Source of the DNA: Bacteroidota bacterium | Lineage (GTDB): Bacteria; Bacteroidota; Bacteroidia; Bacteroidales; FEN-979 | Direction of reading: 5' to 3' | Assembly: GCA_026391795.1 (NCBI GenBank) | Contig: JAPLDI010000023.1 | Span: 66,269-130,268, forward strand | Length of the DNA stretch: 64,000 bases | Shown: positions 45,188-60,897 of the stretch, piece after piece | How positions within the stretch are numbered: the first letter of the stretch is position 1 | Layout of the letters: every line of letters starts with the position of its first letter | The notes under the pieces: model-generated | The model's input: only the letters and a program-made list of their open reading frames with translations | Told to the model about the DNA's origin: nothing | The model's database searches: none | Position numbers and translations under genes: made by a program

Positions 45188-46348
45188 ATGTCAAGGATTC
45201 TAGTGATCGATGATGAAAAGAGTATCCGGAATACACTTCGAGAAATCCTTCAGTATGAAAAATATGAAGTTGATGATGCCGGTGACGGCCCAAACGGTCT
45301 GAGACTTCTCGAAACAAACCGGTACAACGCGATCCTGTGTGATATAAAAATGCCGCAGATGGATGGCATTGAAGTTCTTGAAAAGATCATTCAGAAATCG
45401 GATATTCCCGTCATCATGATCTCGGGACACGGAACCATCGACACTGCGGTAGAAGCGATCAAAAAAGGTGCCTTTGATTACATAGCCAAACCTCTTGATC
45501 TGAATAGATTGCTGATCACCATCCGGAATGCCCTTGAAAAATCGAAGCTGGTGGATGAGGCAAAATTTCTGAAGAATAAGATCAACGGGGTGCATGAAAT
45601 GATCGGAGCTTCGGAAGAGATCTTGAAAGTGAAAGATCTCATCGCCAGGGTAGCACCTACTGATGCGCGTGTCCTGATCACCGGTGAAAGCGGTACGGGA
45701 AAAGAACTTGTGGCACGCTGGCTTCACGCACTGAGCAACCGTTCAGAGCAACCTTTCATCGAAGTCAACTGTGCGGCCATCCCTTCCGAACTTATCGAAA
45801 GCAACCTTTTTGGCCATGAAAAAGGTTCTTTTACTTCCGCCATCCGGCAAAAAAAAGGGGATTTCGAGCTGGCAACCGGGGGTACACTTTTCCTGGACGA
45901 GATTGGCGATATGAGTCTGTCGGCTCAGGCAAAAGTACTCAGGGCCCTGCAGGAGAACAAGATCACCCGGGTGGGAGGGGAGAAGGAAATACCGGTCGAT
46001 GTCAGGGTGATTGCCGCCACCAATAAAAATATCAAGGAGGAAATTGAAAACAAAAATTTCCGGGAAGATCTTTATCACCGGCTGAGTGTGATCCTCATCG
46101 ATGTCCCTCCCCTTTCAAAGCGGCTGGACGATATCCCGTTGCTGACAAAACAGTTCATTGCCGAGATCTGCGAGCACCAGGGAAAAGCTCCGCTGACGGT
46201 CATGGAAGAGGCCTTTGAGGAGCTGATGCAAATCAAATGGACCGGAAATATCCGCGAGCTTCGGAATGTGGTCGAACGGCTGGTCATCCTCTGTGACGGA
46301 AAGATAACAAGGGAGGATGTCAGGAAGTATTCGATGTCATTGTATTAG
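45188..46348 (+). CDS. Sigma-54-dependent response regulator (REC + AAA+), no C-terminal HTH
   Basis: 386 aa. ILVIDDE..D..MPQMDG, GESGTGKE, GHEKGSFTSA (a GAFTGA variant), GNIRELRN. It ends 22 aa after the AAA+ domain. Confidence 0.85.
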   Translation: MSRILVIDDEKSIRNTLREILQYEKYEVDDAGDGPNGLRLLETNRYNAILCDIKMPQMDGIEVLEKIIQKSDIPVIMISGHGTIDTAVEAIKKGAFDYIAKPLDLNRLLITIRNALEKSKLVDEAKFLKNKINGVHEMIGASEEILKVKDLIARVAPTDARVLITGESGTGKELVARWLHALSNRSEQPFIEVNCAAIPSELIESNLFGHEKGSFTSAIRQKKGDFELATGGTLFLDEIGDMSLSAQAKVLRALQENKITRVGGEKEIPVDVRVIAATNKNIKEEIENKNFREDLYHRLSVILIDVPPLSKRLDDIPLLTKQFIAEICEHQGKAPLTVMEEAFEELMQIKWTGNIRELRNVVERLVILCDGKITREDVRKYSMSLY

Positions 46349-46387: not shown

Positions 46388-46981
46388 ATGCCTGATAAAT
46401 CAAAACCAGCTCATGCCTTAAAGACCATCCATCTGAAAAACATGATATGCAATTGCTGCATTCATCTGGTAAGGAAAGAGCTTTCGGTTGAGGGTATAGA
46501 GATTCACGATGTGAAGCTGGGAAGCATCATCCTCTCGCACGATCCCAAAAAAATAACCTGGAAAAAGATAGAGTCCATGCTGGAGGTCCTGGGGTTTGAG
46601 ATCATCCGCGACAGGGAAAAGGCCCTTGTTGAACAGATCAAACTGGCCGTTATCGAGTTGGTCCATAACTCGACATACAACGCGATGGTGCGAAATTCGG
46701 ACTACCTGGTGGAGCGGTTCGGGATGTCGTATCCTTATATCTCAGCGCTCTTTTCAAAACACGAAAACACAACCCTGGAGAAGCTGATCATCTCCAATAA
46801 AATTGAAAAAGTAAAAGAACTGATCGAATACGGGGAACTTACCCTCAGTGAGATCGCCTATATGATGGGCTACAGCAGTGTCCAGTATCTTTCCACCCAG
46901 TTCAAATCGGTAACCGGAGTTTCCGTGACCGATTACAAGGCAAATCCATTCCCGGAACGGAAAGGGATTGACCGGATCTGA
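46388..46981 (+). CDS. AraC-type HTH protein with N-terminal HMA-like domain
   Basis: 197 aa. IHLKNMICNCCIHLV (MxCxxC-like) followed by an AraC HTH (LSEIAYMMGYSSVQYLSTQFK). Confidence 0.7.
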   Translation: MPDKSKPAHALKTIHLKNMICNCCIHLVRKELSVEGIEIHDVKLGSIILSHDPKKITWKKIESMLEVLGFEIIRDREKALVEQIKLAVIELVHNSTYNAMVRNSDYLVERFGMSYPYISALFSKHENTTLEKLIISNKIEKVKELIEYGELTLSEIAYMMGYSSVQYLSTQFKSVTGVSVTDYKANPFPERKGIDRI

Positions 46982-47044: not shown

Positions 47045-47623
47045 ATGAGCGAGGCATCTTTGTTGATGAAACTCAGAGAGGGAGACGAACGGAGTTTCCG
47101 GGAACTGACCAACCTCTATCACGACCGTGTCTACAACACATCACTCGGATTGCTGCAGCATATTGAAAATGCAGAAGATGTGACACAGGAGGTTTTTGTT
47201 GAGGTGTTTCGTTCAGTTTCCGGGTTCAAAGCGGAATGTAAGCTTTCAACCTGGATTTACCGGATCACGGTACAAAAATCGCTCGAGCATATCCGCAGCA
47301 GCCGCAGAAAAAAACGTAGCGGCATTCTTATGAGTCTCTTCGGGAAGGAAGACCGGGTGAACATCCCCGGTGATAACTCCTTTTATCACCCTGGCATCCG
47401 GCTTGAAAATAAAGAGAAGTCCGCCATTCTTTTTGGTGCCATTGCCAAACTTCCCCTGAACCAGCGAACAGCTTTTACGCTTCACAAGGTGGAAGGACTC
47501 TCCCATGCAGAAATAGCGGACATCCTGAAAACTTCAGTTTCGTCGGTCGAATCGCTCATTTTCCGTGCCCGTCAGAACTTACGTTCCCTGCTTGCCGGTT
47601 ATTATGAAAAAAATCTGCGATGA
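47045..47623 (+). CDS. ECF (group IV) RNA polymerase sigma factor
   Basis: 192 aa. Region 2 (DVTQEVFVEVF, WIYRI) and region 4 (LSHAEIADILKTSVSSVESLIFRAR). Confidence 0.88.
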   Translation: MSEASLLMKLREGDERSFRELTNLYHDRVYNTSLGLLQHIENAEDVTQEVFVEVFRSVSGFKAECKLSTWIYRITVQKSLEHIRSSRRKKRSGILMSLFGKEDRVNIPGDNSFYHPGIRLENKEKSAILFGAIAKLPLNQRTAFTLHKVEGLSHAEIADILKTSVSSVESLIFRARQNLRSLLAGYYEKNLR

Positions 47624-47658
47624 CCGCAAGTTCTATAATCATATAACATCAAAATGTC

Positions 47659-47955
47659 ATGCAAACAAAAGAAACATGGATTGAGGAAACAATGGAGTCC
47701 CTGAACGGGATAATCCCGGCAGAAGGCGATCCATTGCTCCGGGAAAGGGTGCTGAGGCAGATGGCACAGGGAGAGCCAGAACCCATCAGGATCCGGTCCG
47801 CACTCATCTGGAAAATTGCAGCTTGTGCTGCCCTCCTTGTCAGCATTAACTTTTTTACCTGGTTCCATCATAACGGTTCAGCATCAAAAGACCAGCGGAC
47901 GATCAAATCAGTTGCTACTGAATATTTTTCGTACATCGATTCCTACAACCTCTGA
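47659..47955 (+). CDS. Small single-pass membrane protein, possible anti-sigma partner
   Basis: 98 aa with a central TM helix (IWKIAACAALLVSINFF). The call rests on its position after the ECF sigma gene. No ZAS motif. Confidence 0.35.
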   Translation: MQTKETWIEETMESLNGIIPAEGDPLLRERVLRQMAQGEPEPIRIRSALIWKIAACAALLVSINFFTWFHHNGSASKDQRTIKSVATEYFSYIDSYNL

Positions 47956-47958
47956 AAA

Positions 47959-48492
47959 ATGAAAAAAACTACCATATACCAGATCATCATCCTCGTCCTG
48001 ATTGTTATCAATCTCGGATCCATGACCTTTATCTGGTTCCGGGATTCAGGACAGGAAGAGCGGCGGAAAGTTTCTTCCACACCGGAAATCCTGATCCGCA
48101 AATTGAATTTGTCAGCATCCCAGCGGGACGCATATTTTCTTCTGCGGAAGGAGCACCAGGAAACCCTGAGGATACTTGAAAGGAATGACAGGATCCTTCA
48201 CCGGCGGTTTTTCGACCTGCTCCTTCTGCCTGTTCTTGATCCGGCCAGGATAAATGCACTGGCTGACTCCATTGCTGCCAACCGGAAAAAAATGGAACTG
48301 GTGACCTATGAACATTTTTCAAAGATCTTCGACCTCCTGGACCGGCAGCAGCAAAAAAAATTCAGTCTTATTTTTCATGAAGTCTTGCGACAGGTGCTGC
48401 CTCCACCGCCTCCGCCACCACCACCACCTCCTCCTCCTCCTGCAGGTGTTCCACCGCCACCGCCGCCACCGCCGCCCGCGGGAACCCGCTAA
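47959..48492 (+). CDS. Spy/CpxP-like (LTxxQ) periplasmic protein, membrane anchored, polyproline C-terminus
   Basis: 177 aa. LSASQRDAYFLLRKEHQ, and a C-terminal P14-AGV-P9 by my codon count. Confidence 0.55.
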   Translation: MKKTTIYQIIILVLIVINLGSMTFIWFRDSGQEERRKVSSTPEILIRKLNLSASQRDAYFLLRKEHQETLRILERNDRILHRRFFDLLLLPVLDPARINALADSIAANRKKMELVTYEHFSKIFDLLDRQQQKKFSLIFHEVLRQVLPPPPPPPPPPPPPPAGVPPPPPPPPPAGTR

Positions 48493-48561
48493 AAACATTG
48501 TAAATGAACTGAGTTAACATTCGGAAATCCTTAAAAGAAACTGTTTTAAATTCTAAGCACT

Positions 48562-49107
48562 ATGAAAACAAATTTTAAAATTTTCAGCCCGATCCTGCTG
48601 GCACTGTTGTTCAGCATGATCATCCTCAACGCAACTGCCCAGAATGGGAATGAGGGCCCAAAAAACCATCAACAGGTTCAGGGTCAGAATCAGGCTCCTT
48701 CCGCCACGCCAGATCTGCCCGATGCACCCATGCCTCCGCCACCTCCGCCACCTCCTCCTCCGCCTGCCGTTGAACCCATGGATGACACTCCGTCTGCGCT
48801 CGATCTTCCCGACCTGTCAGATAACCAGAAAGCTGATATCAAAGCACTGCGTCTGAAACAGATGCAGTCCATGACCCCTTACAGGAACCAGATCCGTGAA
48901 AAAACCGCACATCTTACAACCCTCCTTACCACAGCTCCGGCAGATCTTGCTGCAGCGGATGCCGTTGCCGATGAACTTGGGAAAATCCATGCTTCGGTCC
49001 TGAAACTGATGATTCATCACGACCAGGCCCTTCGGAACCTGCTTACCCCCGACCAGCAGGTGATCTTTGACACACGGCCCAAACCATTCCTCAGGAAGAT
49101 GAAATAG
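48562..49107 (+). CDS. Spy/CpxP-like (LTxxQ) periplasmic protein with N-proximal polyproline tract
   Basis: 181 aa. Signal peptide ..ATAQ, a P11 run, LSDNQKADIKALRLKQ. Confidence 0.55.
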   Translation: MKTNFKIFSPILLALLFSMIILNATAQNGNEGPKNHQQVQGQNQAPSATPDLPDAPMPPPPPPPPPPPAVEPMDDTPSALDLPDLSDNQKADIKALRLKQMQSMTPYRNQIREKTAHLTTLLTTAPADLAAADAVADELGKIHASVLKLMIHHDQALRNLLTPDQQVIFDTRPKPFLRKMK

Positions 49108-49204
49108 GCAGTAGCGGAATCATAAAATTTCGTACATCATTTCTTTAATTTTATAACATCCGCTTTTTGGATAGGTTGTATCATTGCCTCCTAAATGACG
49201 AACT

Positions 49205-49465
49205 ATGAAGCTTCATAAAAATATTGCCGTCAGTGAAGACGGGTTGCTTTTCAACCCGGTGACCGGTGAATCGTACTCGGTAAATCCCATTGGCGTCGAG
49301 ATCATCAACCTCATCCGCGAGGAGAAAAACCAGGAATCCATCTGCAAATGCATCCTGGCGAAATATGCAACGGATAAGACCACCTTTGAGAAAGACTATC
49401 ATGATTTCCTCGGGATACTGGAGCATCACAACCTTATCGAAAGTCATGAAGAAAAGAAAGCTTAA
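49205..49465 (+). CDS. PqqD-family (RRE-like) small protein
   Basis: 86 aa. LLFNPVTGESYSVNPIGVEIINLIREEKNQESI...DYHDFLGILEHHNLI fits the PqqD pattern. Confidence 0.7.
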   Translation: MKLHKNIAVSEDGLLFNPVTGESYSVNPIGVEIINLIREEKNQESICKCILAKYATDKTTFEKDYHDFLGILEHHNLIESHEEKKA

Positions 49466-50492
49466 TATCGCCGTCACCGGGTTGAATGCAATTGACAGTC
49501 CGGGTCCCGGGGTTTCAGTGATCCGGGCGCTGAAGGAGGCAACGTCATTCGAAGCCAGGATCATCGGACTTTCCTACGAGTCGCTCGAACCGGGCATCTA
49601 TATGCATGATCTCGTTGACCATACCTACTCGATCCCTTATCCCGGAGCCGGAATCGACACGCTCCTGGCCCGGATGCGCTATATCCATGAGAAAGAGAAG
49701 CTCGATGTTATCATCCCCAACTTCGATGCAGAGCTTTACCCTTTTATCAAACTGGAAACAAAACTTAAGGCAATGGGCATTCACATGTTTCTGCCTACCC
49801 TGCACCAGTTTGAAGAACGGCACAAGGTCAACCTGAATGATTTTGGAAAGAAATACAACATCCTTGTTCCGAGAAGCAAAGTCATCCATGACCTCAGCAG
49901 CGTGCACAGCCTTCAGTCTGAATTTTCATTCCCGATGATCGTAAAAGGGAAGTTCTATGATGCCTCCATCGCCTACAGCATTGAACAGGTGAAGAGTTAT
50001 TTTAACAAGATCAGCGCCAAATGGGGACTTCCCATCATCATCCAGGAGTTTATCCATGGAACGGAGTTCAATGTAACCGGACTAGGCGATGGGAAAGGCA
50101 ATACCATCGCAGCTGTGCCGATGCGCAAACAGTACATCACTGAAAAAGGAAAGGCCTGGGGAGGTATTTCGATCTCCGATGAGAAAATGCTGGAGATGAC
50201 CCGGAAATTCCTGCATACAACCAAATGGAGGGGCGGTTTTGAACTGGAACTGATGAAAAACAAAGACGGCGAGCTTTACCTGCTGGAGATCAATCCACGT
50301 CTTCCCGCCTGGATCTACCTTGCTGTAGGCGTCGGACAAAACATTCCGGAAGCATTGGTCCACCTGGCCCTGGGGGAGAAAGTGAAGCCCTTTACCCGTT
50401 ACGATGTGGGCAAGATGTTCATCCGGTATGCCTGGGACATGATCGTTGACCGGACGGAGTTTGAACAGATCAGTATTTACGGGGAATTATAA
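49446..50492 (+). CDS. ATP-grasp domain ligase
   Basis: Start set at ATG 49446 (MKKRKLNIAVTG), overlapping the PqqD-like ORF by 20 nt. FPMIVKGKF, IIQEFIHGTEF, LLEINPRLPAW. Confidence 0.8.
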   Translation: MKKRKLNIAVTGLNAIDSPGPGVSVIRALKEATSFEARIIGLSYESLEPGIYMHDLVDHTYSIPYPGAGIDTLLARMRYIHEKEKLDVIIPNFDAELYPFIKLETKLKAMGIHMFLPTLHQFEERHKVNLNDFGKKYNILVPRSKVIHDLSSVHSLQSEFSFPMIVKGKFYDASIAYSIEQVKSYFNKISAKWGLPIIIQEFIHGTEFNVTGLGDGKGNTIAAVPMRKQYITEKGKAWGGISISDEKMLEMTRKFLHTTKWRGGFELELMKNKDGELYLLEINPRLPAWIYLAVGVGQNIPEALVHLALGEKVKPFTRYDVGKMFIRYAWDMIVDRTEFEQISIYGEL

Positions 50493-50612
50493 AATTAAAT
50501 AGCGAGGTGGCGAAAAGCAAAGTAGCGAAATCAAGAATTCTCCCTGACTTTACAAACTTTACAAACTTTACAAACTTTATGAACTTTACAAACTTTGTGA
50601 CTTATTTAACAG
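50493..50612. repeat. Composite repeat element, copy A (9-nt tandem ACTTTACAA x6 plus unique core)
   Basis: The core at 50524-50553 is the reverse complement (27/30) of 55800-55829. Tandem units span 50547-50600. Confidence 0.85.
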
Positions 50613-50620
50613 CATGAACC

Positions 50621-51979
50621 ATGACGAAATTGCGATATGAACGACCGGTGATAAAAAAGCTTGAAACCGGGATGCCTAATAAATTCGGAACGCGTACAGA
50701 ATATGAGCCGATGACCCACATTGACGGGGTTGCCGTGAAGGATCTGATCACAGAGTTTGGGTCGCCCTTGTTCGTCATCTCGGAAAAAACCATTCGGGAT
50801 ACCATTAAAAAGGCCAAGAAGGCATTTGGAACCCGCTATCCGAAGGTGCAGTTTGCCTGGTCGTACAAGACCAACTACCTGAATGCCATCTGCAGTATTT
50901 TCCACCAGGAAGGTTCCTGGGCAGAGGTGGTTTCCGGTTTTGAATACGACAAAGCTATCAGCCTTGGAGTGGATGGACGTAAGATCATTTTCAACGGCCC
51001 GGACAAGAGTGAACAGGACCTTACCAAGGCAATCCATAATGATTCACTGATCCATATCGATCATCTTGATGAATTGTATTCCATAACCGAACTGGCTTCG
51101 AAACTGAAGAAACGTCCGAGAGTAGCCATCCGGGTTAACATGGATACCGGCGTCTATCCCATGTGGGACCGTTTCGGTTTTAATTATGAGAATGGCCAGG
51201 CATGGGATGCCATCAACAAGATCATGCATTCAGAAAAACTGGAGCTTGTGGGACTTCACTGTCACATCGGGACGTTCATGCTATCCCCGTTTGCCTATGG
51301 AACAGCTGCGACAAAGCTGGCTGAACTGGCGCTGGGTATTGAAAAGAAATTCAGTCACCAGATAAAATACATCGATATGGGCGGCGGATTTGCTTCGAAA
51401 AATACCCTGAAAGGCTCTTACCTGCCGGGCTCCGATATTAATCCTGACTTTGACGATTTCGCGGAAGCCATTACCTCAAGCCTGCTGAACAGCAATTTCC
51501 AGAAAGACAAGCTACCCCTGCTGATCCTCGAAACCGGTCGTGCCCTGGTGGACGAAGCCGGTTACCTGCTCGGATCGGTGATCTCCAACAAACGCTCAAG
51601 CACAGGCCGCCGAAACACCATCATCGATGTTGGCGTGAATATCCTTTTTACCTCTTTCTGGTATGACCATAAGGTCACCCCGGCGCAACCTTTCACACAC
51701 TACACAGAGGATACCTGCCTTTACGGTCCCCTCTGCATGAACATTGATGTGATCCGCGAAAGCGCCAACCTGCCGCTGCTGAACAAGGGCAACCATATTG
51801 TGATCCATAATGTCGGGGCGTACAATATGACGCAGTGGATGCAGTTTATTACGTTACGGCCCAATGTAGTGCTGATCGGCCCGGATGAAAAACCGTACCT
51901 GATCCGGAGCAGGGAATCACTGGAGAACATGAACAGGATGGAACATGTTCCGAGGCATCTGAAGGAAATCGGTAAATAA
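50621..51979 (+). CDS. PLP-dependent decarboxylase, Orn/DAP/Arg decarboxylase family 2 (LysA/BtrK-like fold)
   Basis: 452 aa. FGSPLFVISE, the SYKTN Lys motif, IDMGGGF, ETGRALV, GPLCMNIDV. Confidence 0.8.
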   Translation: MTKLRYERPVIKKLETGMPNKFGTRTEYEPMTHIDGVAVKDLITEFGSPLFVISEKTIRDTIKKAKKAFGTRYPKVQFAWSYKTNYLNAICSIFHQEGSWAEVVSGFEYDKAISLGVDGRKIIFNGPDKSEQDLTKAIHNDSLIHIDHLDELYSITELASKLKKRPRVAIRVNMDTGVYPMWDRFGFNYENGQAWDAINKIMHSEKLELVGLHCHIGTFMLSPFAYGTAATKLAELALGIEKKFSHQIKYIDMGGGFASKNTLKGSYLPGSDINPDFDDFAEAITSSLLNSNFQKDKLPLLILETGRALVDEAGYLLGSVISNKRSSTGRRNTIIDVGVNILFTSFWYDHKVTPAQPFTHYTEDTCLYGPLCMNIDVIRESANLPLLNKGNHIVIHNVGAYNMTQWMQFITLRPNVVLIGPDEKPYLIRSRESLENMNRMEHVPRHLKEIGK

Positions 51980-52031
51980 TTGAAAATTGAAAATTGATAA
52001 TAATTTTTCCGTAATTCGTAATTCGTAATTA
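51979..52031. repeat. Heptamer arrays ATTGAAA x3 and GTAATTC x3
   Basis: attgaaa, attgaaa, attgata ... gtaattc, gtaattc, gtaatta, ending 10 nt before the TTG start at 52042. Confidence 0.8.
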
Positions 52032-52041
52032 TTTCTGACTG

Positions 52042-54252
52042 TTGAGCATCAAGAATCCTACATACATATTCCCTTCCTTTCTCTCCAGTATAGTGAACAG
52101 CTATACGCAAATCTTCTTTTCGAATAACCGGATTTTTGCCCTGATCCTGATGATGGTCACGTTTTTCGATTTCTGGGCCGGGTTAAGCGGAATGATCTCG
52201 ATCATTGTTTCGAATGCCATGGCCTATCTCATCGGATTTAACCGGATGAACATCAAAAAGGGGTATTACGGGTTTAACAGCCTGCTTGTCGGACTGGCAC
52301 TCGGCGTCTATTACCAGCCCGGTCCGGAATTCTTCATCGTTCTCATCTTCTCTTCCATGCTTACCCTCCTGCTTACCCTGATGCTGGAAGGGGTCGTTGG
52401 AAAATACGGGCTGCCTTTCATGAGTCTCTCCTTTTTACTTGCAACATGGCTGGTAAGCCTTGCAACAAGGCAGTTTACCACACTCCATATAAGTGAGAGG
52501 GGTATTTTCATGACGAATGAGATGTATGAACTTGGCGGACACCACATGGTGGCATCTTACAACTGGCTTACCAACGCGGATATCCCCGGTTCCATCCGGC
52601 TCTACTTCACCTCCCTGGGAGCCATCTTTTTTCAATATCATCTCTTTGCAGGGATCCTTGTTGCCATCGGACTTCTGATCTATTCACGGATCGCATTCAT
52701 TCTCTCCCTCACCGGTTTCTTCTCTGCAGTTGCCTATTATAATTTTATCGGGGCGAATATCCACGAACTCAGCTATGCCTATATCGGCTTCAACTTCATT
52801 CTCACTTCCATCGCCGTCGGTGGATTTTTTATCATTCCTTCAAGATGGTCGTTTTTATGGGTAATACTCCTTACACCTCTTATTTCAATCATCCTCACGA
52901 GCACCAACGTGATATTTTCAATTTTTCAGCTTTCGGTCTTTTCCCTGCCTTTTAATATCGTCGTTCTTCTTTTTCTCTATTCCCTGAAGTTCCGCGAACG
53001 GTTTTATGATAAACCCCAGCTGGTGGAGTATCAGCAATATTCTCCTGAGAAGAACCTCTATTCACATGTAAATTACAAAGCACGGTTTGGAAAATCACTC
53101 TTTTTTCCTTTCGAGCTGCCTTTCTGGGGTGAATGGAAAGTGACCCAGGGTCATGATGGTAAATTTACACACCAGGGCGACTGGCGTCATGCCTGGGATT
53201 TTGAAGTTACCGATGAGGAAGGACGTACGTTTTCCGGCGACGGAAAAAAGCGGGAAGATTATTATGCCTACAACAAGCCGGTAATCGCACCTGCAGATGG
53301 TTATGTGGAAGAGGTGATCGATACGATCGGGGAAAATGATATCGGCAAGGTCGACCTGGATCACAACTGGGGCAATACGATCATCCTGAGGCATGCGGAC
53401 CAGCTTTATACGAAGCTTTCTCACCTGAAAAAGGAAAGCATTAAGGTCGTAGCTGGAGATTCCGTCAGGAAAGGTCAGGTGCTTGCCAGTTGCGGAAATT
53501 CAGGGCGTTCACCGGTGCCCCATATCCATTTTCAGGTTCAGGCAACTCCTTATATCGGATCAAAAACGATCGATTATCCGGTAAATCATTATATCCGTCA
53601 CAAGGATGGAAATTTTGAATTAAGATCGTATGAATCGCCGGGGAATGATGTCATCGTATCGAACATCAGTAAAAACAGCTCTCTCGAAAAGGCATTTCAT
53701 TTTATTCCGGGACAAAAATTCAGTTTCAACGTAAGTCAGCCTGGCGGGAATGATTATCCGTTAGACTGGGAGGTTCAGGTTGATGCCATAAACAGCATGT
53801 TCATTTTCTGTGAAAAAAGCAACTCCCGTGCATATTTCCGCAATGATGGCGATATTCATTATTTTACACATTTTGAGGGAAACCGGTCATCGGTCCTGTT
53901 TAAATTTTTCCTGGGAGCCTATAAAGTCATGATGGGTTATTATAGTAACCTGCTGGTTAAAGATCAGTTCCCGGTGAATACGTTTAACAACCTGATCGTA
54001 CAAACTGCCCAGGATTTTCTGGCCCCGTTCTGGATTTTTTCCCGTTCGGAGTACACCTTGCGGTATCTTGGAATGGATGATGCCCTGATGCAAACCAACA
54101 TCCGGCTTCAGTCCGTAGTATCTGCAAAAGTTGGCCGACGTTCGGTAAGAAGAATGGAATGCGATCTCTTTGCAGGTCCTCATGGGCTTGAAAGGTTTGT
54201 AATCCGCGAAAATGAAAAAACGATCAACGTTAACCTGGTAGGAGAACGATGA
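52042..54252 (+). CDS. Fusion protein: urea-transporter-like membrane domain + M23/LytM-like domain + unknown C-terminal domain
   Basis: 736 aa with a TTG start. SYTQIFFSNN and GYYGFNSLLVGLALG (UT-like, about 9 TM helices). GNTIILRHADQLYTKLSHL and GNSGRSPVPHIHFQV (M23). Confidence 0.7.
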   Translation: MSIKNPTYIFPSFLSSIVNSYTQIFFSNNRIFALILMMVTFFDFWAGLSGMISIIVSNAMAYLIGFNRMNIKKGYYGFNSLLVGLALGVYYQPGPEFFIVLIFSSMLTLLLTLMLEGVVGKYGLPFMSLSFLLATWLVSLATRQFTTLHISERGIFMTNEMYELGGHHMVASYNWLTNADIPGSIRLYFTSLGAIFFQYHLFAGILVAIGLLIYSRIAFILSLTGFFSAVAYYNFIGANIHELSYAYIGFNFILTSIAVGGFFIIPSRWSFLWVILLTPLISIILTSTNVIFSIFQLSVFSLPFNIVVLLFLYSLKFRERFYDKPQLVEYQQYSPEKNLYSHVNYKARFGKSLFFPFELPFWGEWKVTQGHDGKFTHQGDWRHAWDFEVTDEEGRTFSGDGKKREDYYAYNKPVIAPADGYVEEVIDTIGENDIGKVDLDHNWGNTIILRHADQLYTKLSHLKKESIKVVAGDSVRKGQVLASCGNSGRSPVPHIHFQVQATPYIGSKTIDYPVNHYIRHKDGNFELRSYESPGNDVIVSNISKNSSLEKAFHFIPGQKFSFNVSQPGGNDYPLDWEVQVDAINSMFIFCEKSNSRAYFRNDGDIHYFTHFEGNRSSVLFKFFLGAYKVMMGYYSNLLVKDQFPVNTFNNLIVQTAQDFLAPFWIFSRSEYTLRYLGMDDALMQTNIRLQSVVSAKVGRRSVRRMECDLFAGPHGLERFVIRENEKTINVNLVGER

Positions 54253-55742
54253 AAAAAGATCTCCTGCTATTTATTGCGGCTTTTATGTTGATGATTTCAC
54301 CTTCACTGGCCGAAACGAAACTCGATTTCATGACCGTTGACAGGCTCACCTACCGGTATTACGAGGAACAGAAATGGGATAGTGTGATTGTGGTTGGCAA
54401 ACAGGCACTTCATGAGGATATCGATTTTTTCTACCTGCGGGTCAGGATGGGTATTGCCTATTTTGAAAAGAAGGAATACTTTCCTGCAACAGTGCATCTC
54501 CGGAAGGCCAGGGAGTTTAATTCAGGAGACCCGTTGGTTGCAGATTATCTTTACAGGGCCTACCTTTACACAAACAGGAATGAAGAAGCCCGCGTCCTGA
54601 GAGCGGCGATTCCGGCGGAGGAGAGAAAACCTTTGGATACAAAAAGCGGGTTTTTGGAATCCGTGCATTTTGAAAGCGGGTATACTTTCAGCAGCGGCAA
54701 TTCCCCCGACAACCTTTCCACGCTTACACAGCGTGACAGTATTTACGGTGAACAGGATCTTTACGGAAACAGCCTCTATGAAAATCTCGGGCTTACCATG
54801 AAGATCTCAAACCGGGTAAGTCTGTCGGTAGCCTACAACTACCTGAATTTCGCCAAGACAAAGTACTTCCAGTATGGCCTGGTTGAAGACCAGTTGACCG
54901 GTATTTCAGACAGTTCCTGGGGAAAAAGTTACCATTACCAGTTTCCCCGGGTACTCCATGATACCAGTGTCAGTTACAATGTCAGGCAGAACGAGGTTCA
55001 TTTAGAGGCCATAATCGCCCTTGGGGGAGGATTCAGGATCATGCCGGCCATTCACTGGATCTATGACAGTTACGCCCTGACCGACTCAAGATTCAGGTTT
55101 GACACAGTTCGCGATACGGCATCCTATACTTCAGCAAACGACACCTATCACACCTTTCCTTTTGTGCGTAAAAGCTATTCTTTTGAACAGAAAGATACTG
55201 CATACAGCAACTGGGTTGCTTCGCTGACGGTGACAAAAGAGCTGGGAATCTTTAACCTGGGTTTATCGGGCAGCTGGTCAAACCTGAATGGGATGACGCA
55301 GATCCAGGCCGGCCTGAGCCTGACCTATTATCCGCTGGGAAACCTTAATTTTTACGGCACAACTGCCATCACGGGTTTTTCGCAGGATAAAATATACCGG
55401 TTGCTCCTGAGCCAGGTACTCGGGGTAAAAGCCACACGGTGGATGTGGCTCGAAGGAAACTTTTATTACGGCGATTACACCAATGCCAATATTTTCAACG
55501 GTTCGGTCGTTTACAACAACAGTGACATGATTGATTACCGTGCCGGAGCCTCCATGGTATTCATGGTTGGCAGGCACATTCAATTGTCTTTGATGTACCA
55601 GTATTTCCGGAAGGAGAGCCAGCAGCTGTTCTACATCAGGCCAAGGAATCCCGGCGCCGGTGAGAACCCGCAGAATCCAAAAATAAAAAACAACCCCTAT
55701 AACACAAACACCCTAATCGGAGGAATCACATGGAAACTTTAA
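54249..55742 (+). CDS. Putative outer-membrane protein (TPR-like N-terminus, beta-barrel-like C-terminus)
   Basis: 497 aa. Signal peptide ..PSLA, helical repeats, then an alternating-strand region ending GGITWKL. The start overlaps the upstream stop (ATGA). Confidence 0.45.
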   Translation: MKKDLLLFIAAFMLMISPSLAETKLDFMTVDRLTYRYYEEQKWDSVIVVGKQALHEDIDFFYLRVRMGIAYFEKKEYFPATVHLRKAREFNSGDPLVADYLYRAYLYTNRNEEARVLRAAIPAEERKPLDTKSGFLESVHFESGYTFSSGNSPDNLSTLTQRDSIYGEQDLYGNSLYENLGLTMKISNRVSLSVAYNYLNFAKTKYFQYGLVEDQLTGISDSSWGKSYHYQFPRVLHDTSVSYNVRQNEVHLEAIIALGGGFRIMPAIHWIYDSYALTDSRFRFDTVRDTASYTSANDTYHTFPFVRKSYSFEQKDTAYSNWVASLTVTKELGIFNLGLSGSWSNLNGMTQIQAGLSLTYYPLGNLNFYGTTAITGFSQDKIYRLLLSQVLGVKATRWMWLEGNFYYGDYTNANIFNGSVVYNNSDMIDYRAGASMVFMVGRHIQLSLMYQYFRKESQQLFYIRPRNPGAGENPQNPKIKNNPYNTNTLIGGITWKL

Positions 55743-56443
55743 AAAGTCACAAAGTCACAAAGTCACAGAGTTACAAAGTTTATAAAGTTTTTAAAGTTCA
55801 TAAAGTCAGAGAGAATTCTTGCTTTCGCTCCCGAGGACTCGGGATCGCCATTTTGCTAGTTATCATTGCTTCTCTGGGGGTAACGGCCCAAAACTATGCC
55901 CTTCAGCAGGATGCATTTGCAAAGAGCCAGGCTTATGAGTTACGGGGAAATTTCACCGATGCCATTGCCGCAATGAAGACCGTATATCAGGAGGAGTCCT
56001 ACGAGATCAACCTGCGTCTTGGATGGCTGACCTACCTTGCCGGCCAGTTTACCGAATCTTCTGCCTTTTACCAGAAAGCAATCAAACTGAAACCCTACTC
56101 CATTGAAGCCAAGTTCGGATTTGTAAATCCGGCTTCTGCCCTTGGAAACTGGGACCAGGTGATAAGCCAGTATGAAGAAATTCTGACCATCGATCCTCAG
56201 AATTCAGTCGCCAACTATCGTATGGGATCGATCTGGTACGGTAGAAAAGATTATGCAAAAGCGGAGAAGTTCCTTGAAAAGGTTGTAAACCTCTATCCGT
56301 TTGACTATGACGGGCTGGTTCTTTATGCCTGGACCAACCTGAAACTGGGGAAAATGCGAGAAGCCCAGGTCCTCTTCAACAAAGTGCTGATGAACCGGCC
56401 GAAGGATGCTTCGGCACTGGAGGGGCTGGGGTTGATTAAATAG
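55730..56443 (+). CDS. TPR repeat protein, secreted
   Basis: 237 aa. The Lys-rich N-region is encoded by the repeat, then the signal-like IAILLVIIASLGVTAQ, then several TPR units. The true start is uncertain (an alternative TTG lies at 55853). Confidence 0.65.
   Translation: METLKSHKVTKSQSYKVYKVFKVHKVRENSCFRSRGLGIAILLVIIASLGVTAQNYALQQDAFAKSQAYELRGNFTDAIAAMKTVYQEESYEINLRLGWLTYLAGQFTESSAFYQKAIKLKPYSIEAKFGFVNPASALGNWDQVISQYEEILTIDPQNSVANYRMGSIWYGRKDYAKAEKFLEKVVNLYPFDYDGLVLYAWTNLKLGKMREAQVLFNKVLMNRPKDASALEGLGLIK
55744..55844. repeat. Composite repeat element, copy B (8-9-nt tandem AAGTCACA/AAGTTTATA plus core and palindrome)
   Basis: Inverted relative to copy A. Palindrome tcccgaggactcggga at 55829-55844. 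It lies inside the annotated 5' end of the TPR ORF. Confidence 0.85.
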
Positions 56444-56504: not shown

Positions 56505-56714
56505 TTAATCTTTCATGCAGCGGACGGAGAAAGCATTTGTTCGCAAGGCGGGATAACTTCCTACACTGGGATCCGACTCATTCATCGCATGACTCCATGC
56601 TTTTTCCGGTCCATATGCTGAAGAGCTCCAGAAAAATGCTGCAAAGCCATCATAATTCCAGGATTTATTGACTTCGGCAAAATCCCTGGTCGGAACCAGG
56701 GCTGCCGTATTGCA
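56505..56714 (-). pseudogene. Out-of-frame 3' remnant of the adhesin FISUMP domain
   Basis: The adjacent frame reads ..KSWNYDGFAAFFWSSSAYGPEKAWSHAMNESDPSVGSYPALRTNAFSVRCMKD*. This parallels the C-terminus of the 16003 FISUMP protein (..LWSS...GFSVRCLKD*). Confidence 0.7.
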
Positions 56715-59700
56715 TCAGTTCATCCCATTGATAGAGCACAGCGCCTGACAAGCAGCGGGCAGGAAGATCATTGTAACAGTACTTTTCGGCCATGCAGTTA
56801 TCGCGCTGGTGAGTGGATCCGGAAACCTGGGAACCGTAATTCAGATTGGCGGCGAACCAGCATTGGGTTCCGATCTGGATCGTAGGGTAACTTATATTGT
56901 CACGTATATCCGTTACCGGGTTCCCGCAAGTAAAAGGCGAAGATGCTTGATTGATAATACGGGCAGTGGCAAGAGCGGTACACAGTGCCGCATTCGTTGA
57001 CGTATAGGTAACCGTGTGTGTTCCCATACCCGCGAGGGATGGCGAAAAGACTCCGGTTACCGGATTTACCCCGGGACCTGAGTAGATTCCTCCCAGCGGG
57101 ATCCCGCCTTTCAGTTTGAAAGGTTTTGCATTCAAGGTTGTTACCGTATCGAAACAAGGTGTAAAGGTAACCACCGGGTTGCTTTCCACAGTCATAGTGA
57201 GGGTATTGCTTATGGCCGGATTTCCTGAAGAACAGGTAAGTGATGAGTTCAGACGACAGGAAATATTGTCGTTGTTGGACGGGGAGTAGGTATACACCGG
57301 GTTATCAGACCCGACGTCAGTCCCGTTTACTTTCCACTGGTACGAGGAAGAGAGCCCTCCATTAAAAGGGGTTGCAGTAAATGTTGCCGGGATTCCTTCG
57401 CAGACAGGGTTTTTTGATGCAGCGATGGTGACACTCACCGGCAGGTTTACGTTGACATTCATGATAATTGTATTGCTGGATGCAGGGTTCCCGGATGTAC
57501 AGGTCAGGCTGGATGCCAGGGAACAGGAGATGGCATCAAGATTGGCCGGAGTGAATGTAAAAAAGTGGCTGTTGATACCGGTGCTTACCCCGTTTACTTT
57601 CCAGTCGAGGATGGGCAAACTCCCTTCATTTAACCCGGTTGCATTGAATACAACCGACGTCCCGGAACAAACGGGGTTTGCCGCAGCAGCGATGGAAACA
57701 GTGACAGGCTGGTTTGGGTTGACATTCATTACAATGGTGTTGCTGGTGGCTGGGTTCCCGGATGTACAGGTCAGGTTGGATGTCAGTATACAGGTGACGG
57801 CGTCATTGTCTGCCGGCAGATAGGTCAGTACCGGTGAATTTGTTCCCGCTGCACCCCCGTTCACTTTCCAGTTGTAGAGAGGGTTGTTCCCTCCATGGGT
57901 ACCTGTTGCGAAAAATGTCACCGCTGTACCTGCACAGACAGGATTTGCCGATTCTGAGACCGAAACGGTGACAGGCAGGTTGGGGTTGACCGTCATGATC
58001 ACGGCAGGACTGGTTGCCGGATTGCCGGATGTGCAGGTCAGGTCGGAAGTTAGCAAACAGGAGACAGCATCATTATCGGCTGGCATATAGGTGAATGAGG
58101 GTGAATTTGTTCCCTGGCTGATGCCGTTTACCTTCCACAGGTAAACGGGAAAATTCCCTTCGTTTAGCGGGTATGCAGTAAACGTAACCTGGGAGCCTGA
58201 ACAAACGGGGTTTACGTCAGGGGCAACAGTGACGCTTACCGGGAGATTTGTGCTGACGGTCATGGTCACCGTATTTGAGATCGCAGGATTGTTTGTAACG
58301 CAAATGGTTTCAGAAGAAGTGAGCAAACATGTTACCTGGTCATTGTTGGAAGGGGTATAGGTGAATGCCGGACTGTTTGTACCGGCGATCGTGCCATTGA
58401 CTTTCCAAAGATAAACAGGACTGTTTCCTTCGTGGTTTGGTGTCGCAGTAAACAGGACAGGGATGCCCGCGCAGGCCGGGTTGACCGAGGGTGAAACCGT
58501 GACGCTGACATCGTTGATCGTATTGACGATCATGGAAATCACGTTGGATGTTGCCGGATTATTTATAACACAGGAAGAGATGGAAGATGCCAGGATGCAC
58601 ATGACCAGGTCCCCGTTTTGCGGAGCATAGGTATAGGTCGGCATGCCTGTACCTGCATTCCCCCCGTTGACCTTCCATTGATACAAAGGGGAGAGCCCTC
58701 CGCTTGTGGGTGTTGCCGTAAAAGTAACCTGGGTTCCTTCACAAATATTATTACCGGAGGCCGATATGGATACTTTTACGGAATCTGCCGGGGTCACTGT
58801 TACAACATAGGGTAAGGGAGTGCCGGTACAGCCCAGGTAGGAGGGGGTGATAAAATAGGTTACCGTTTCATTGCTCGTATTTGAATTCGTCAGCTGCTGG
58901 TTTATTGTGTTCCCAAATCCGCCGGAATAACCGGAAACGAATCCCGAAGAGCCTGTTGCAGTCCATGAAAAGGAAGGATTAGGTACGTTTGAGGTTAAGC
59001 TTATGTTCGTAAAATTTCCGGAACAGATCGTTTTGGAAGGAGGAAAATTTGTGACGACAGGAGTCGGGGTGGTGGAAAGTTGCACGGTATCTGTTGCCTG
59101 GCAACCGTTTGCGTTTGTGACGGTTACCTTATAGGTACCGGCCTGGCTAGTCGTGAATGTCCGTCCTGTTCCTACCGGTAAGCCTGTACCCAGGTCTACC
59201 CAGAGGTAGGTACAACCCGCACAGGCCCCCGCGTCAAAAGTGATGGATTGTCCCTGGCATACCGTTGTGTCCGGTCCCAGGTTAACCGGAATAACAGAAT
59301 ATAAAGAAATCGTAATTGCATCGTTTGCACTGCAACCTGTTTTCGTAACAGTCACCGAATAGGCCCCTGCCGATACGCTGATCGTTCTTGTTGTTGCCCC
59401 GGTTGACCAGAGGTACGTTGTAAATCCGCCCCCGGCGTCGAGGGTTGTGGAGGTTCCCGGGCAGATGCTCCGGTCGGGGCCAAGGTTCACGGTGGGGACG
59501 GGCCCGATCACAATAGTCTTGCAGAGGCTTACCTGGTCGGGAAGACCTTCATTTACCAGCAGCCTTACATTGTATGTGCCGGGAGTGTTATATGAAAATG
59601 GCGGCGGAGTGAAGAGAATTGACGATGGAACCGAAGAATTTGTGCAGGGAGGAAAAGTCAGCCTTGTAAGGGTATTTGATCCCCTGTTTGTAATGTATGC

Positions 59701-60747
59701 AAAGAGAGTATCATTCTGACGGAAGATTTCGGAGAAGCAATGCGGCCGGTTAAGGTTCCCGATATTACCAATAACCTGTCCGGTAACTGTTCCGGCTATT
59801 CCTCCATCAAAAGTTAACTTTCCTAATTCACCGTTTGGAATGTAGTTTAAATAGTATCCGCTGGTCAGATCACAATCTCTTAAAATGGCAAGCCCGATTT
59901 GCTGGTTAGCACCGCCAGGATTACCCAGATTTTCCGCCGTTGGTGTATTCATTAAAGAACTTCCGAAAGTAAACCTTGCAAGTGTCATGTTCCCCGCAGT
60001 GACCATCATATACCACAACGAATTTTCCTGAACAATACAAATCGGACCGGGAGAAAATAAAACGCCAAAGTTGCCAAAATTTTGGAGGGTAGGGGTATTC
60101 GCCAGGCTTGTTCCGAAATTCAGCCGGTAGAAGATATTAGCAACTGAACAGGTCCCAAATCCCAGCCACGTATTTCCTTCTTTAATAATCGCAAGGCCAT
60201 GTGCCATGTTGAAAATTGGAAAAGGACCAATATTGACTGCAGTTGGAGTGTTATTTAAAGAAGCACCAAAATCTAACCGCACAATGGTAGTGTTGTTACA
60301 AACAAACCCATACCAGTTTCCATTATCTTTCTTTACCTGGATCCCTTCGATGTTGTTGCCAAGTATACCAAAGGTGCCAAGGTTTGTCCAGCTGACCGGA
60401 TCGTGACTGAATGATACGCCGTGATAATATCGAATAATGCCCGCAAATTGACAGCTAATAAAGGAATAGCAGTCATCTCCATCTTTGGCAAGGGTTAGAT
60501 ATGTTGGAACATCCAGTAACCCTCCATAATTACCAATGTTTACGCCTGTTGGATTTGAATTCGTGTTACCGGAGCAGAAATTCCAATAGTAAGTCGATCC
60601 TCCGGTTGTTAAGTTTGTGATGGTTATCGGGGCTCCGACACAGCTGGAGTCGGGCAGTGTGAAATTCACAACAGGCTGTCCGTTGAGGGTAATTTCAACC
60701 CCCAATAGAAAGGCTAAAACCTGTGATAAAAAAAGTGCTTTTTTCAT
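56665..60747 (-). CDS. Large repeat-rich surface protein (beta-propeller-like N-domain, PKD/Ig-like modules, truncated FISUMP domain)
   Basis: Start set at ATG 60747 (MKKALFLSQVLAFLLG), because the longer ORF would overlap the tmRNA. Six tandem ~89-aa modules (C.G..VTFTA...Y.WKVNG...D...C). No T9SS CTD seen. Confidence 0.8.
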   Translation of the reverse strand: MKKALFLSQVLAFLLGVEITLNGQPVVNFTLPDSSCVGAPITITNLTTGGSTYYWNFCSGNTNSNPTGVNIGNYGGLLDVPTYLTLAKDGDDCYSFISCQFAGIIRYYHGVSFSHDPVSWTNLGTFGILGNNIEGIQVKKDNGNWYGFVCNNTTIVRLDFGASLNNTPTAVNIGPFPIFNMAHGLAIIKEGNTWLGFGTCSVANIFYRLNFGTSLANTPTLQNFGNFGVLFSPGPICIVQENSLWYMMVTAGNMTLARFTFGSSLMNTPTAENLGNPGGANQQIGLAILRDCDLTSGYYLNYIPNGELGKLTFDGGIAGTVTGQVIGNIGNLNRPHCFSEIFRQNDTLFAYITNRGSNTLTRLTFPPCTNSSVPSSILFTPPPFSYNTPGTYNVRLLVNEGLPDQVSLCKTIVIGPVPTVNLGPDRSICPGTSTTLDAGGGFTTYLWSTGATTRTISVSAGAYSVTVTKTGCSANDAITISLYSVIPVNLGPDTTVCQGQSITFDAGACAGCTYLWVDLGTGLPVGTGRTFTTSQAGTYKVTVTNANGCQATDTVQLSTTPTPVVTNFPPSKTICSGNFTNISLTSNVPNPSFSWTATGSSGFVSGYSGGFGNTINQQLTNSNTSNETVTYFITPSYLGCTGTPLPYVVTVTPADSVKVSISASGNNICEGTQVTFTATPTSGGLSPLYQWKVNGGNAGTGMPTYTYAPQNGDLVMCILASSISSCVINNPATSNVISMIVNTINDVSVTVSPSVNPACAGIPVLFTATPNHEGNSPVYLWKVNGTIAGTNSPAFTYTPSNNDQVTCLLTSSETICVTNNPAISNTVTMTVSTNLPVSVTVAPDVNPVCSGSQVTFTAYPLNEGNFPVYLWKVNGISQGTNSPSFTYMPADNDAVSCLLTSDLTCTSGNPATSPAVIMTVNPNLPVTVSVSESANPVCAGTAVTFFATGTHGGNNPLYNWKVNGGAAGTNSPVLTYLPADNDAVTCILTSNLTCTSGNPATSNTIVMNVNPNQPVTVSIAAAANPVCSGTSVVFNATGLNEGSLPILDWKVNGVSTGINSHFFTFTPANLDAISCSLASSLTCTSGNPASSNTIIMNVNVNLPVSVTIAASKNPVCEGIPATFTATPFNGGLSSSYQWKVNGTDVGSDNPVYTYSPSNNDNISCRLNSSLTCSSGNPAISNTLTMTVESNPVVTFTPCFDTVTTLNAKPFKLKGGIPLGGIYSGPGVNPVTGVFSPSLAGMGTHTVTYTSTNAALCTALATARIINQASSPFTCGNPVTDIRDNISYPTIQIGTQCWFAANLNYGSQVSGSTHQRDNCMAEKYCYNDLPARCLSGAVLYQWDELMQYGSPGSDQGFCRSQ

Positions 60748-60882: not shown

Positions 60883-60897
60883 CTTGAACTTCTGATG

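Follow-up and report, generated by a model that had tools for sequence, protein, structure and literature searches.

What brings a small PqqD-like protein, an ATP-grasp ligase, an amino acid decarboxylase and a channel fused to a metallopeptidase together in one gene cluster with two putative envelope proteins? The question is raised by a 64,000-nt stretch of the genome of a Bacteroidota bacterium (assembly GCA_026391795.1, contig JAPLDI010000023.1, positions 66,269-130,268 of the forward strand; hereafter the window), in which six genes follow one another on the plus strand. They encode, in this order, an 86-aa small protein of the PqqD family with the RRE fold (49205..49465; PF05402), a 348-aa ATP-grasp ligase (49446..50492, with the ATG start at 49446; PF15632), a 452-aa pyridoxal phosphate (PLP) decarboxylase of the alanine-racemase (AR) fold that resembles the FigC/FslC clade with conjugated substrates (50621..51979; PF02784, PF00278), a 736-aa fusion of a urea-transporter-fold (UT) channel with an M23 metallopeptidase (52042..54252, with a TTG start; PF03253, PF01551), a 497-aa predicted outer-membrane barrel protein (54249..55742) and a 237-aa exported protein with matches to TPR families (55730..56443). 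A preliminary description of this DNA had reported six same-strand open reading frames (ORFs) with tight junctions, and all of the coordinates, overlaps and gaps were reproduced: the PqqD and ATP-grasp genes overlap by 20 nt, the UT-M23 stop and the barrel start share the 4 nt of an ATGA (54249-54252), a 13-nt overlap joins the barrel gene to the TPR gene, and gaps of 128 nt and 62 nt lie before and after the decarboxylase gene, respectively. Its family assignments are equally sound, as every Pfam match exceeds the gathering score and the motifs EINPR, SYKTN, GGGF and ETGR are found in the translations.

Does the arrangement reflect more than accidental proximity? One genome of each GTDB species was scanned, using an alignment of diverse ATP-grasp sequences as the query. 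At least 597 candidate loci were returned, and the best 80 of these were compared by tblastn with the window proteins. Relatives of the ATP-grasp protein number in the thousands, the 120 closest being 83-100% identical and belonging to Bacteroidota or Bacteroidales metagenome-assembled genomes. The best 80 loci extend over Bacteroidales/Prolixibacteraceae, Cyclobacteriaceae, Flavobacteriales, Chitinophagales, Paludibacter and Lentimicrobiaceae, as well as Ignavibacteria, Balneolaceae, Kapaibacteria and Marinimicrobia; cultured carriers are found among the Cyclobacteriaceae (Algoriphagus sp. CAU 1675 and Cognataquiflexum aquatile). Among these 80 genome loci, the system is carried wherever the contig is long enough to hold it. 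PqqD, ATP-grasp, decarboxylase, UT, M23 and the fusion's C-terminal domain are collinear on one strand in all 53 loci, from Bacteroidota and related FCB-group genomes, whose sequence continues downstream for 6.8 kb or more from the start of the ATP-grasp gene. Both the barrel and the TPR gene, and hence all six genes, are detected in 46 of the 53, while in the other seven either the barrel escapes detection (three loci) or the best TPR match is an upstream paralogue (four loci). The overlap between the PqqD stop and the ATP-grasp start measures 20 nt in 24 loci and 4-14 nt in 25 further ones. Identity between classes is 59-91% for the ATP-grasp, 58-89% for the decarboxylase, 50-81% for the M23 domain, 39-79% for the TPR protein, 35-82% for PqqD, 33-86% for the UT domain and 20-61% for the barrel. 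The six-gene arrangement is a real unit, conserved widely and far beyond chance.

A second scan, of metagenomes, was seeded with the tandem form of the ligase, and its loci were annotated with purpose-built hidden Markov models (HMMs). Roughly 236 ATP-grasp relatives fall below E 1e-30 among the 50%-identity cluster representatives, many of them tandem duplications of about 710 aa. The arrangement of the window, which we call type A (PqqD, single ATP-grasp, decarboxylase, UT::M23, an optional barrel, TPR), recurs in 35 further metagenomic loci, and a sister architecture, type B, appears in 20 loci, where a TPR gene is followed by PqqD, a double ATP-grasp (tandem or split), the decarboxylase and a fusion of the UT channel with a sirtuin (SIR2) instead of M23. 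In these HMM-annotated loci the single ligase is always accompanied by M23 and the double ligase by SIR2, which suggests that the release chemistry changes together with the number of ligations. Pfam confirmed both UT and SIR2 in four type B proteins (L084, 11544-13217; L101, 8079-9716; L112, 8666-10345; L119, 5027-6676), and a second, stand-alone SIR2 gene is present in some loci of this type (L106, L109, L113). A representative order is that of L084, which begins with a 452-aa TPR protein bearing a signal peptide and continues through PqqD, the double ATP-grasp and the decarboxylase to UT::SIR2. The GC content of the loci ranges from 35 to 78%, so that many lineages are involved; for the sister form the span is 36 to 78%.

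Gene fusion ties ligase and decarboxylase together as well. ATP-grasp and decarboxylase form a single 871-aa polypeptide in L085 (8001-10616) and L086 (1866-4481), preceded by PqqD and followed by a 637-aa protein without a Pfam match; in L085 the two families are, as far as sequence can tell, both present, linked and fused. Around an ATP-grasp relative of 46% identity the order PqqD, ATP-grasp, decarboxylase is found once more. The preliminary description had proposed that all these genes serve one system, and the co-occurrence of the families across classes and phyla, together with the fusion, bears this out. Its six-part inventory holds for the window, where all six genes are present, but has to be narrowed for the family: since the same genes recur in types A and B, the conserved core consists of five parts (PqqD, ATP-grasp, decarboxylase, UT::hydrolase and TPR), with the barrel as a lineage-variable extra.

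What chemistry could such a core perform? The decarboxylase matches Orn_Arg_deC_N (PF02784, E 4e-31) and Orn_DAP_Arg_deC (PF00278, E 1e-12). NCBIfam ranks FslC (NF041039) first, with 242.5 bits against a cutoff of 500, and lysA (TIGR01048) next, with 221.1 against 297.9; the best PDB match is 7kh2, an N-citrylornithine decarboxylase (202 bits), compared with 144 bits for an archaeal diaminopimelate decarboxylase (DAPDC) and 76 for BtrK. The loop GPLCMNID aligns to GLCESSD of the Methanocaldococcus jannaschii DAPDC and has no acidic residue after the catalytic Cys, reading C-M-N-I-D where FigC has C-M-Q-H-D and DAPDC has C-E-S-S-D. In FigC this Met replaces the acidic residue that binds the free side-chain amine (PMC7857480), and FigC, SbnH, AcsE, MccE and BtrK constitute a clade acting on conjugated amino acids (PMC7857480, PMC8503589). 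The decarboxylase of the window is thus nearest to FigC/FslC, which decarboxylates side-chain-acylated ornithine. The possibility that it is an ordinary LysA, which the preliminary description had named, together with a match of the ATP-grasp to a characterised primary-metabolism ligase, as fatal to its proposal, was discarded because of the sub-cutoff score and the C-M in place of C-E-S, and the precedent invoked there, a ligase with a decarboxylase that acts on a conjugated amino acid, fits. Among the citrate contacts of FigC (PMC7857480), the equivalents of T327 and Y331 are kept along with the C-M pair, but H357 and T330 are replaced by Ile and Trp, so the acyl group is probably not citrate.

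The ligase matches ATPgrasp_Ter (PF15632, E 4e-12) and, weakly, PylC-like_N, and its ATP- and Mg-binding residues K167, E281, N283 and R285 are conserved. Neither NCBIfam nor a PDB profile comparison revealed a characterised close relative. The nearest NCBIfam entry is PRK12767 'CPS-like' (93 bits against a cutoff of 390), and the best PDB profile matches are a 'CPS-like' protein from structural genomics, carbamoyl phosphate synthetase (CPS) itself, biotin carboxylases and PurD; the rimK_fam score of 16 bits against a cutoff of 143 sets it apart from enzymes of the RimK/LysX type. ATP-grasp paralogues of 53% and 41% identity also occur without PqqD or decarboxylase (L091, 10001-11056; L087, 8001-9047), one of them solitary and the other among genes for MBOAT and LB_356 proteins, an M1 peptidase and glycosyltransferases.

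The small protein matches PF05402 above the gathering score (E 4e-11) and falls far below the cutoffs of all NCBIfam PqqD subfamilies. Its gene lies immediately upstream of the ligase in almost every type A and type B locus that reaches far enough to include this position. The space before it in the window is 97 nt, and the earlier observation that no precursor-peptide ORF is to be seen there can be extended to the family: an all-against-all comparison of small ORFs (12-80 aa) from both flanks and the gaps of some 78 loci recovered nothing but shadow frames. In 77 PqqD orthologues the core is conserved and the C-terminus varies in both length and sequence, which makes the covalent carrier role of the LysW or BtrI type, suggested by the preliminary description, unlikely; a LysW-like carrier was rejected on account of the different fold as well. 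The cluster would accordingly be neither a classical system for ribosomally made peptides with post-translational modifications (RiPPs) nor a carrier system of the LysW type. The ligand of PqqD could be a peptide encoded elsewhere or a segment of a partner protein, or there could be none if it is a purely structural partner.

How is the channel fusion built, and on which side of the membrane does its hydrolase lie? The UT domain (residues 1-335; 52042..53046) covers profile positions 2-290 of the 292 in PF03253 (E 1e-59), a full-length UT fold, and is collinear with residues 6-327 of the 335 in dvUT, the urea channel of Desulfovibrio vulgaris, with no extra helix at either end. Its score against the UT equivalog TIGR03441 is 123 bits, the cutoff being 275. 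UT proteins have ten helices and both termini inside the cell (PMC5700210). The last UT helix is followed by a Lys/Arg-rich linker; neither a signal peptide nor a transmembrane helix separates the UT domain from the M23 domain (residues ~350-515; 53089..53586), and no hydrophobic segment comes after the linker. The collinearity with dvUT, the intracellular C-termini of UT proteins and the presence of an intact, NAD-dependent SIR2 domain at the same position in type B lead us to predict that M23 is cytoplasmic, as the C-terminal domain would also be; the requirement of SIR2 for NAD+ supports this topology. A direct action on peptidoglycan or the envelope is therefore unlikely, and the decoration of peptidoglycan suggested in the preliminary description loses ground. 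The pore ladder, Q-T-T-Q in UT proteins (PMC11589576), reads Q23-S128-S301-Q198 here, both Thr being exchanged for Ser and the Gln residues kept; in the wider family the ladder is largely but not universally preserved, and the Gln residues vary.

The M23 domain matches PF01551 (E 1e-15) and, by Foldseek, DipM, ShyA and LytM. Its zinc-binding and catalytic residues H377, D386, H461, H494 and H496 are invariant in all 96 non-identical orthologues, the first His and the Asp standing nine residues apart and not in an HxxxD arrangement. The SIR2 motifs GAGxST..GxPD, TQNVDxLH and ExHG are likewise invariant (18/18 sequences), so that both the NAD and the His motif are intact. Judged by their catalytic residues, the ATP-grasp, decarboxylase, M23 and SIR2 domains all look active. 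The beta-rich C-terminal domain of UT-M23 (residues ~520-736; 53599..54252) has no assigned family: it is modelled by AlphaFold2 with a pLDDT of 80-90, finds no Pfam or PDB sequence match, and yields a Foldseek list dominated by the UT and M23 domains. Within the type A family only some members have it, and no invariant residue of catalytic appearance is seen in it.

The two last genes point beyond the inner membrane. The 497-aa protein has no Pfam or NCBIfam match, but an AlphaFold2 model built with 49 homologues (pLDDT 80, pTM 0.70) predicts a signal peptide, three TPR-like hairpins (residues 27-120) and a beta-barrel (residues 136-496). Foldseek relates the model to FadL (1.7e-11) and BcsC (3e-9, with a TM-score of only 0.3), which supports the earlier assignment as an outer-membrane barrel. 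Other lineages have an unrelated beta-rich protein of about 300 aa without an assigned fold at this position. The TPR protein (TPR_2, E 7e-19, and other TPR families) is encoded in both architectures, last in type A and first in type B. Given the evident signal peptide of the barrel and the hydrophobic, signal-like N-terminus of the TPR protein, the system appears to span the cytoplasm, inner membrane, periplasm and outer membrane. The TPR tail ...SALEGLxLIK is conserved within the FCB group; it was considered as a modification site and dropped, as it has the pattern of a TPR capping helix and its terminal Lys is lost elsewhere.

What could be the reaction that unites these parts? One kind of bond is common to the enzyme types involved: PylC makes N-epsilon-acyl-lysine, decarboxylases of the FigC type require a side-chain-acylated amino acid whose alpha-amine and alpha-carboxylate are free, DD-endopeptidases of the M23 family hydrolyse the acyl linkage at the omega-amine of diaminopimelate (DAP), and sirtuins deacylate the epsilon-amine of lysine. 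This shared bond leads us to propose a sequence of acylation, decarboxylation and cleavage. In the cytoplasm, the PqqD-fold adaptor bound to the ATP-grasp ligase would form a core with the FigC-like decarboxylase. The ligase would join a carboxylate to the side-chain amine of a diamino acid of the Lys, Orn or DAP type, giving an N-omega-acyl amino acid whose alpha-amine and alpha-carboxylate remain free, and the decarboxylase would then remove the alpha-carboxylate to leave an N-acyl diamine. At the cytoplasmic face of the UT channel, M23 (type A) or the sirtuin (type B) might cleave an amide of this intermediate, releasing or deprotecting it at the membrane, and the product may be connected to the envelope or the exterior by way of the UT pore together with the TPR protein in the periplasm and the barrel in the outer membrane. 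We assign this mechanism as a whole, from the N-omega-acyl diamino acid to amide cleavage at a membrane channel linked to periplasmic and outer-membrane partners, a probability of about 0.3.

Several observations weigh against it. If the bond made by the ligase were afterwards hydrolysed, the cycle would be futile except where the acyl part acts as a carrier or protecting group, and no carrier or acyl donor was identified; with the citrate contacts H357 and T330 of FigC not kept, the acyl group itself is not predicted. What UT pores pass are small neutral amides rather than charged diamines; outside the FCB group the pore residues are preserved only in part, and the UT domain is modelled by AlphaFold2 with a pLDDT below 60, too low to read the pore geometry. 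The roles given to the TPR protein and the barrel are drawn by analogy with other systems, and with neither a conserved small ORF at the cluster nor a conserved PqqD tail, no ligand of PqqD is evident.

Could the genes, or some of them, mean something else? The plainest reading would treat them as genes that adjoin without sharing a function, among them a LysA paralogue, a urea channel and a cell-wall peptidase. The two intergenic gaps filled with repeats would suit it. These short tandem repeats are frequent throughout the window. Close relatives, however, lack them, and in relative L001 the same two junctions are a 42-nt spacer and a 4-nt overlap, so the repeat-filled gaps are a local feature. 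Gene order kept across phyla, gene fusions, start/stop overlaps, co-varying architectures and the failure to reach the lysA and urea-transporter equivalog cutoffs all speak against independence, which the comparative data already contradict and to which we give hardly any credence. A RiPP or scaffold-peptide pathway whose peptide is encoded elsewhere deserves more attention. PqqD would then be a true RRE presenting a ribosomal peptide, to which the ATP-grasp adds an amino acid; the decarboxylase would trim this residue, and liberation of the small product or removal of the leader would fall to M23 or SIR2, in a manner resembling pearlin or fosfazinomycin biosynthesis. The intact PqqD/RRE fold translationally coupled to the ligase, the peptidase belonging to the system and the precedent of stand-alone RREs combined with ATP-grasp enzymes on scaffold peptides (PMC13622209) are all consistent with such a pathway. 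Nevertheless, the small ORFs recurring in or next to the roughly 78 loci are only shadow frames of neighbouring genes, enzymes that are 59-65% identical across classes look more like the makers of a fixed metabolite than of a variable peptide, and a PLP decarboxylase needs a free alpha-amine, which a residue joined to a C-terminus through its own amine would not offer. We regard this pathway as unlikely.

Two further readings keep the enzymes on small substrates. The suggestion of the preliminary description that the system decorates peptidoglycan can be shifted to the cytoplasmic face, where the enzymes would edit peptidoglycan precursors at the free D-centre or the D-Glu carboxylate of UDP-MurNAc-peptide or lipid II, for instance through attachment of an amino acid that is then decarboxylated to an amine or through conversion of bound DAP to Lys, while M23 or SIR2 proofreads the omega-amine branch. 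M23 is a fold that recognises stem peptides, the decarboxylase is related to DAPDC, the periplasmic TPR and outer-membrane partners would have a place, and polyamine-modified peptidoglycan is known to anchor the outer membrane in Negativicutes. PBP2/RodA genes or the dcw cluster adjoin the system in Prolixibacteraceae, but this peptidoglycan-gene neighbourhood is limited to that one family; the cluster has no Mur ligase, flippase or transpeptidase, RRE domains bind L-peptide strands and not muropeptides, and the UT channel would be left without an evident role, all of which makes us rather sceptical of this reading. Equally built on small molecules, and in our estimate improbable, is the synthesis of a chelator or signal independent of non-ribosomal peptide synthetases, following the logic of rhizoferrin or vibrioferrin: an acid would be ligated to a diamino acid, the conjugate decarboxylated and a second ligation performed to yield an N,N'-diacyl diamine for secretion. 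The nearest decarboxylase is indeed the rhizoferrin enzyme, the double ATP-grasp of type B would fit two ligations, vibrioferrin synthesis employs an ATP-grasp enzyme and an AR-fold decarboxylase (PvsA/PvsE), and a Cys-rich AraC regulator stands upstream in 21 loci. Yet the conserved set has no synthetase of the NRPS-independent siderophore (NIS) type, no TonB-dependent receptor, no ABC or MFS exporter and no reductase, the residues that contact citrate are not kept, and PqqD, M23/SIR2 and TPR would be unneeded.

If the three-step mechanism of acylation, decarboxylation and cleavage is nonetheless the right one, the locus would tentatively exemplify a previously unrecognised class of envelope-spanning machine, spread over several phyla, in which an RRE-guided ATP-grasp and a PLP decarboxylase build an amine-bearing conjugate that a channel-tethered cytoplasmic M23 or sirtuin unmasks during its passage through the membrane. 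The urea-transporter fold, an M23 peptidase in the cytoplasm and, outside RiPP biosynthesis, an RRE would all be put to a new use, and the unmasked conjugate might supply an amine to the periplasm, the peptidoglycan or the outer membrane. About 10 loci, representing both architectures, have GNAT acetyltransferase genes next to the system (e.g. L052, 7056-7625; L080, 9078-9578; L112, 3040-3594); these genes are of the Acetyltransf_3 family, their nearest NCBIfam entries being PseH and spermidine acetyltransferase, both far below cutoff, and give a weak hint at a free amine product.

Candidates for the control of the cluster stand among its neighbours. The AraC-family regulator of the window (46388..46981, plus strand; HTH_18, E 2e-13) has a Cys-rich (NCC) N-terminal domain, and with its orthologues situated directly upstream of PqqD in the 21 loci mentioned it possibly controls the cluster. 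A sigma-54-dependent response regulator (45188..46348, plus strand) is a recurrent neighbour, orthologues of 78-86% identity standing directly upstream in L003 and L005, and pairs of sigma-54 response regulator and histidine kinase flank the system in type B loci L084 and L100 and in type A loci L122 and L129. In the window an inserted module (47045-49107) separates the AraC-type regulator from the cluster. It encodes an extracytoplasmic function (ECF) sigma factor, a putative anti-sigma protein of 98 aa and two periplasmic proteins of the Metal_resist/LTXXQ (Spy/CpxP-like) type, both with long poly-proline runs; a similar module is found in only a few other loci (L045, L051, L058). Upstream of PqqD, 31 nt from its start, stands a sigma-54-like GG-N8-TTGC motif (49174-49187), and a perfect TGGCACGATAGTTGC occurs 45 nt upstream of PqqD in the Ignavibacteria locus L061. 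As a conserved feature, a sigma-54 promoter was rejected, because the motif in 7 of 78 loci equals the background. Counts of sigma-70 promoters and intrinsic terminators match the shuffled expectation, with none in the gaps, in a scan that does not cover Bacteroidota promoters. Rfam returned nothing within the cluster at gathering scores or at E<=1, so a riboswitch or RNA leader was dropped, and a defence-system reading was abandoned since none of the six proteins matches PADLOC, the anti-phage resource searched.

The repeats of the window deserve a separate remark. Tandem arrays of 7-9-nt units occupy many of its intergenic spacers (e.g. 51978-52030; 2082-2138; 6004-6043; 14745-14788; 26713-26762), and a ACTTTACAA repeat family in inverted orientation flanks the block from decarboxylase to barrel on both sides (50547-50598, plus; 55773-55806, minus), with 8 matches where 0.3 are expected. 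Tandem repeats of 8-9 nt also encode the start of the TPR ORF, for some 25 residues, and the array at 55739-55806 lies in the n-region of the signal peptide, where it keeps the frame open. In L001 and L003 the TPR frame is open from the same ATGGAAAC start, which makes the overlapping start plausible. The gain or loss of a unit would shift the frame, and the array may therefore act as a slipped-strand on/off switch; a similar 8-nt array is located at the same n-region in L003 (16204-16266). Elsewhere in the window, a tmRNA gene is encoded on the minus strand (60895-61267; RF00023, 154 bits), and the listed start of a 1424-aa ORF (56665-60939, minus) runs into it, so that the true start must lie further downstream. 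Upstream of the regulators, a 757-aa secreted protein (42863-45136, minus) has, its translation being judged by eye, FG-GAP/VCBS-like repeats and an apparent type IX secretion C-terminal sorting domain.

Why would the system be worth solving? Many species-level genomes retain it, in Bacteroidota, Ignavibacteria, Balneolaceae, Kapaibacteria and Marinimicrobia, and none of its proteins belongs to a curated functional family. Its elucidation would give a function to a large orphan ATP-grasp subfamily, explain a new branch of conjugate-substrate decarboxylases and a PqqD protein that apparently works without a RiPP precursor, and assign a role to the fusions UT::M23 and UT::SIR2, which until now figure only among listed domain combinations. 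Abundant environmental bacteria might also turn out to make an envelope metabolite, or a modification, that is new. Searches of open-access full text in PMC and bioRxiv found no description of the gene set, and a 2026 survey of UT evolution merely lists the UT and M23 fusion as a domain combination. The claim of the preliminary description that no precedent couples such enzymes to a UT/M23 protein and envelope partners stands.

Which known systems does it then resemble? Genes associated with XrtA/PEP-CTERM, including PrsT, PrsK and PrsR, offer a similar parts list of ligase, small partner, AR-fold decarboxylase, hydrolase, TPR lipoprotein and sigma-54 two-component neighbours, but the matches to NCBIfam TIGR03099 and PrsT are weak and far below cutoffs (134 against 478 and 50 against 312 bits), an AMP-ligase and acyl carrier protein (ACP) stand there in place of ATP-grasp and PqqD, and those genes are likewise uncharacterised. 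The TPR-plus-barrel exporters BcsC, PgaA and AlgK/AlgE share the TPR-like N-terminus on a beta-barrel and the separate periplasmic TPR protein, whereas the conserved set here has no glycosyltransferase, polymerase or synthase and its inner-membrane partner is a UT-fold channel. As in RRE-dependent RiPP and scaffold-peptide pathways (lasso peptides, PQQ, pearlins, fosfazinomycin), a stand-alone PqqD/RRE is coupled to a modifying enzyme and a peptidase takes part; unlike in these pathways, no precursor gene is co-located and the enzymes are highly conserved across phyla. LysW/LysX/LysK provide the parallel of an ATP-grasp isopeptide link, modification of the tethered substrate and release by a metallopeptidase, but use a zinc-ribbon carrier with a conserved acidic tail and a RimK/LysX-type ligase, neither of which is found here, where the proposed releasing enzyme is M23 or SIR2 fused to a channel.

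Butirosin biosynthesis has the combination of a small partner, an ATP-grasp and an AR-fold decarboxylase acting on a tethered amino acid (BtrI/BtrJ/BtrK), with a hydrolytic deprotection later in the route. The small partner of our system has the RRE fold and is not a phosphopantetheinylated ACP, for which the cluster has no gene; BtrK is distant (76 bits), and the Btr genes belong to an antibiotic gene cluster while the present system is fixed in the primary genomes of whole phyla. With FigA/FigC (FslA/FslC), SbnH and AcsE, finally, it would share the attachment of a carboxylate to an amino acid side chain followed by PLP-dependent alpha-decarboxylation on the AR fold, and its decarboxylase is most similar to FigC, with the same Cys-Met loop. 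Here, however, the ligase is an ATP-grasp enzyme and not an NIS synthetase, the citrate contacts of FigC are not kept, PqqD, UT::M23 or UT::SIR2, the TPR protein and the barrel are added, and there are no siderophore uptake genes. From its sequences the system appears to follow the known ligase and conjugate-decarboxylase logic in a form of its own, set in an envelope-spanning architecture that has no characterised counterpart.

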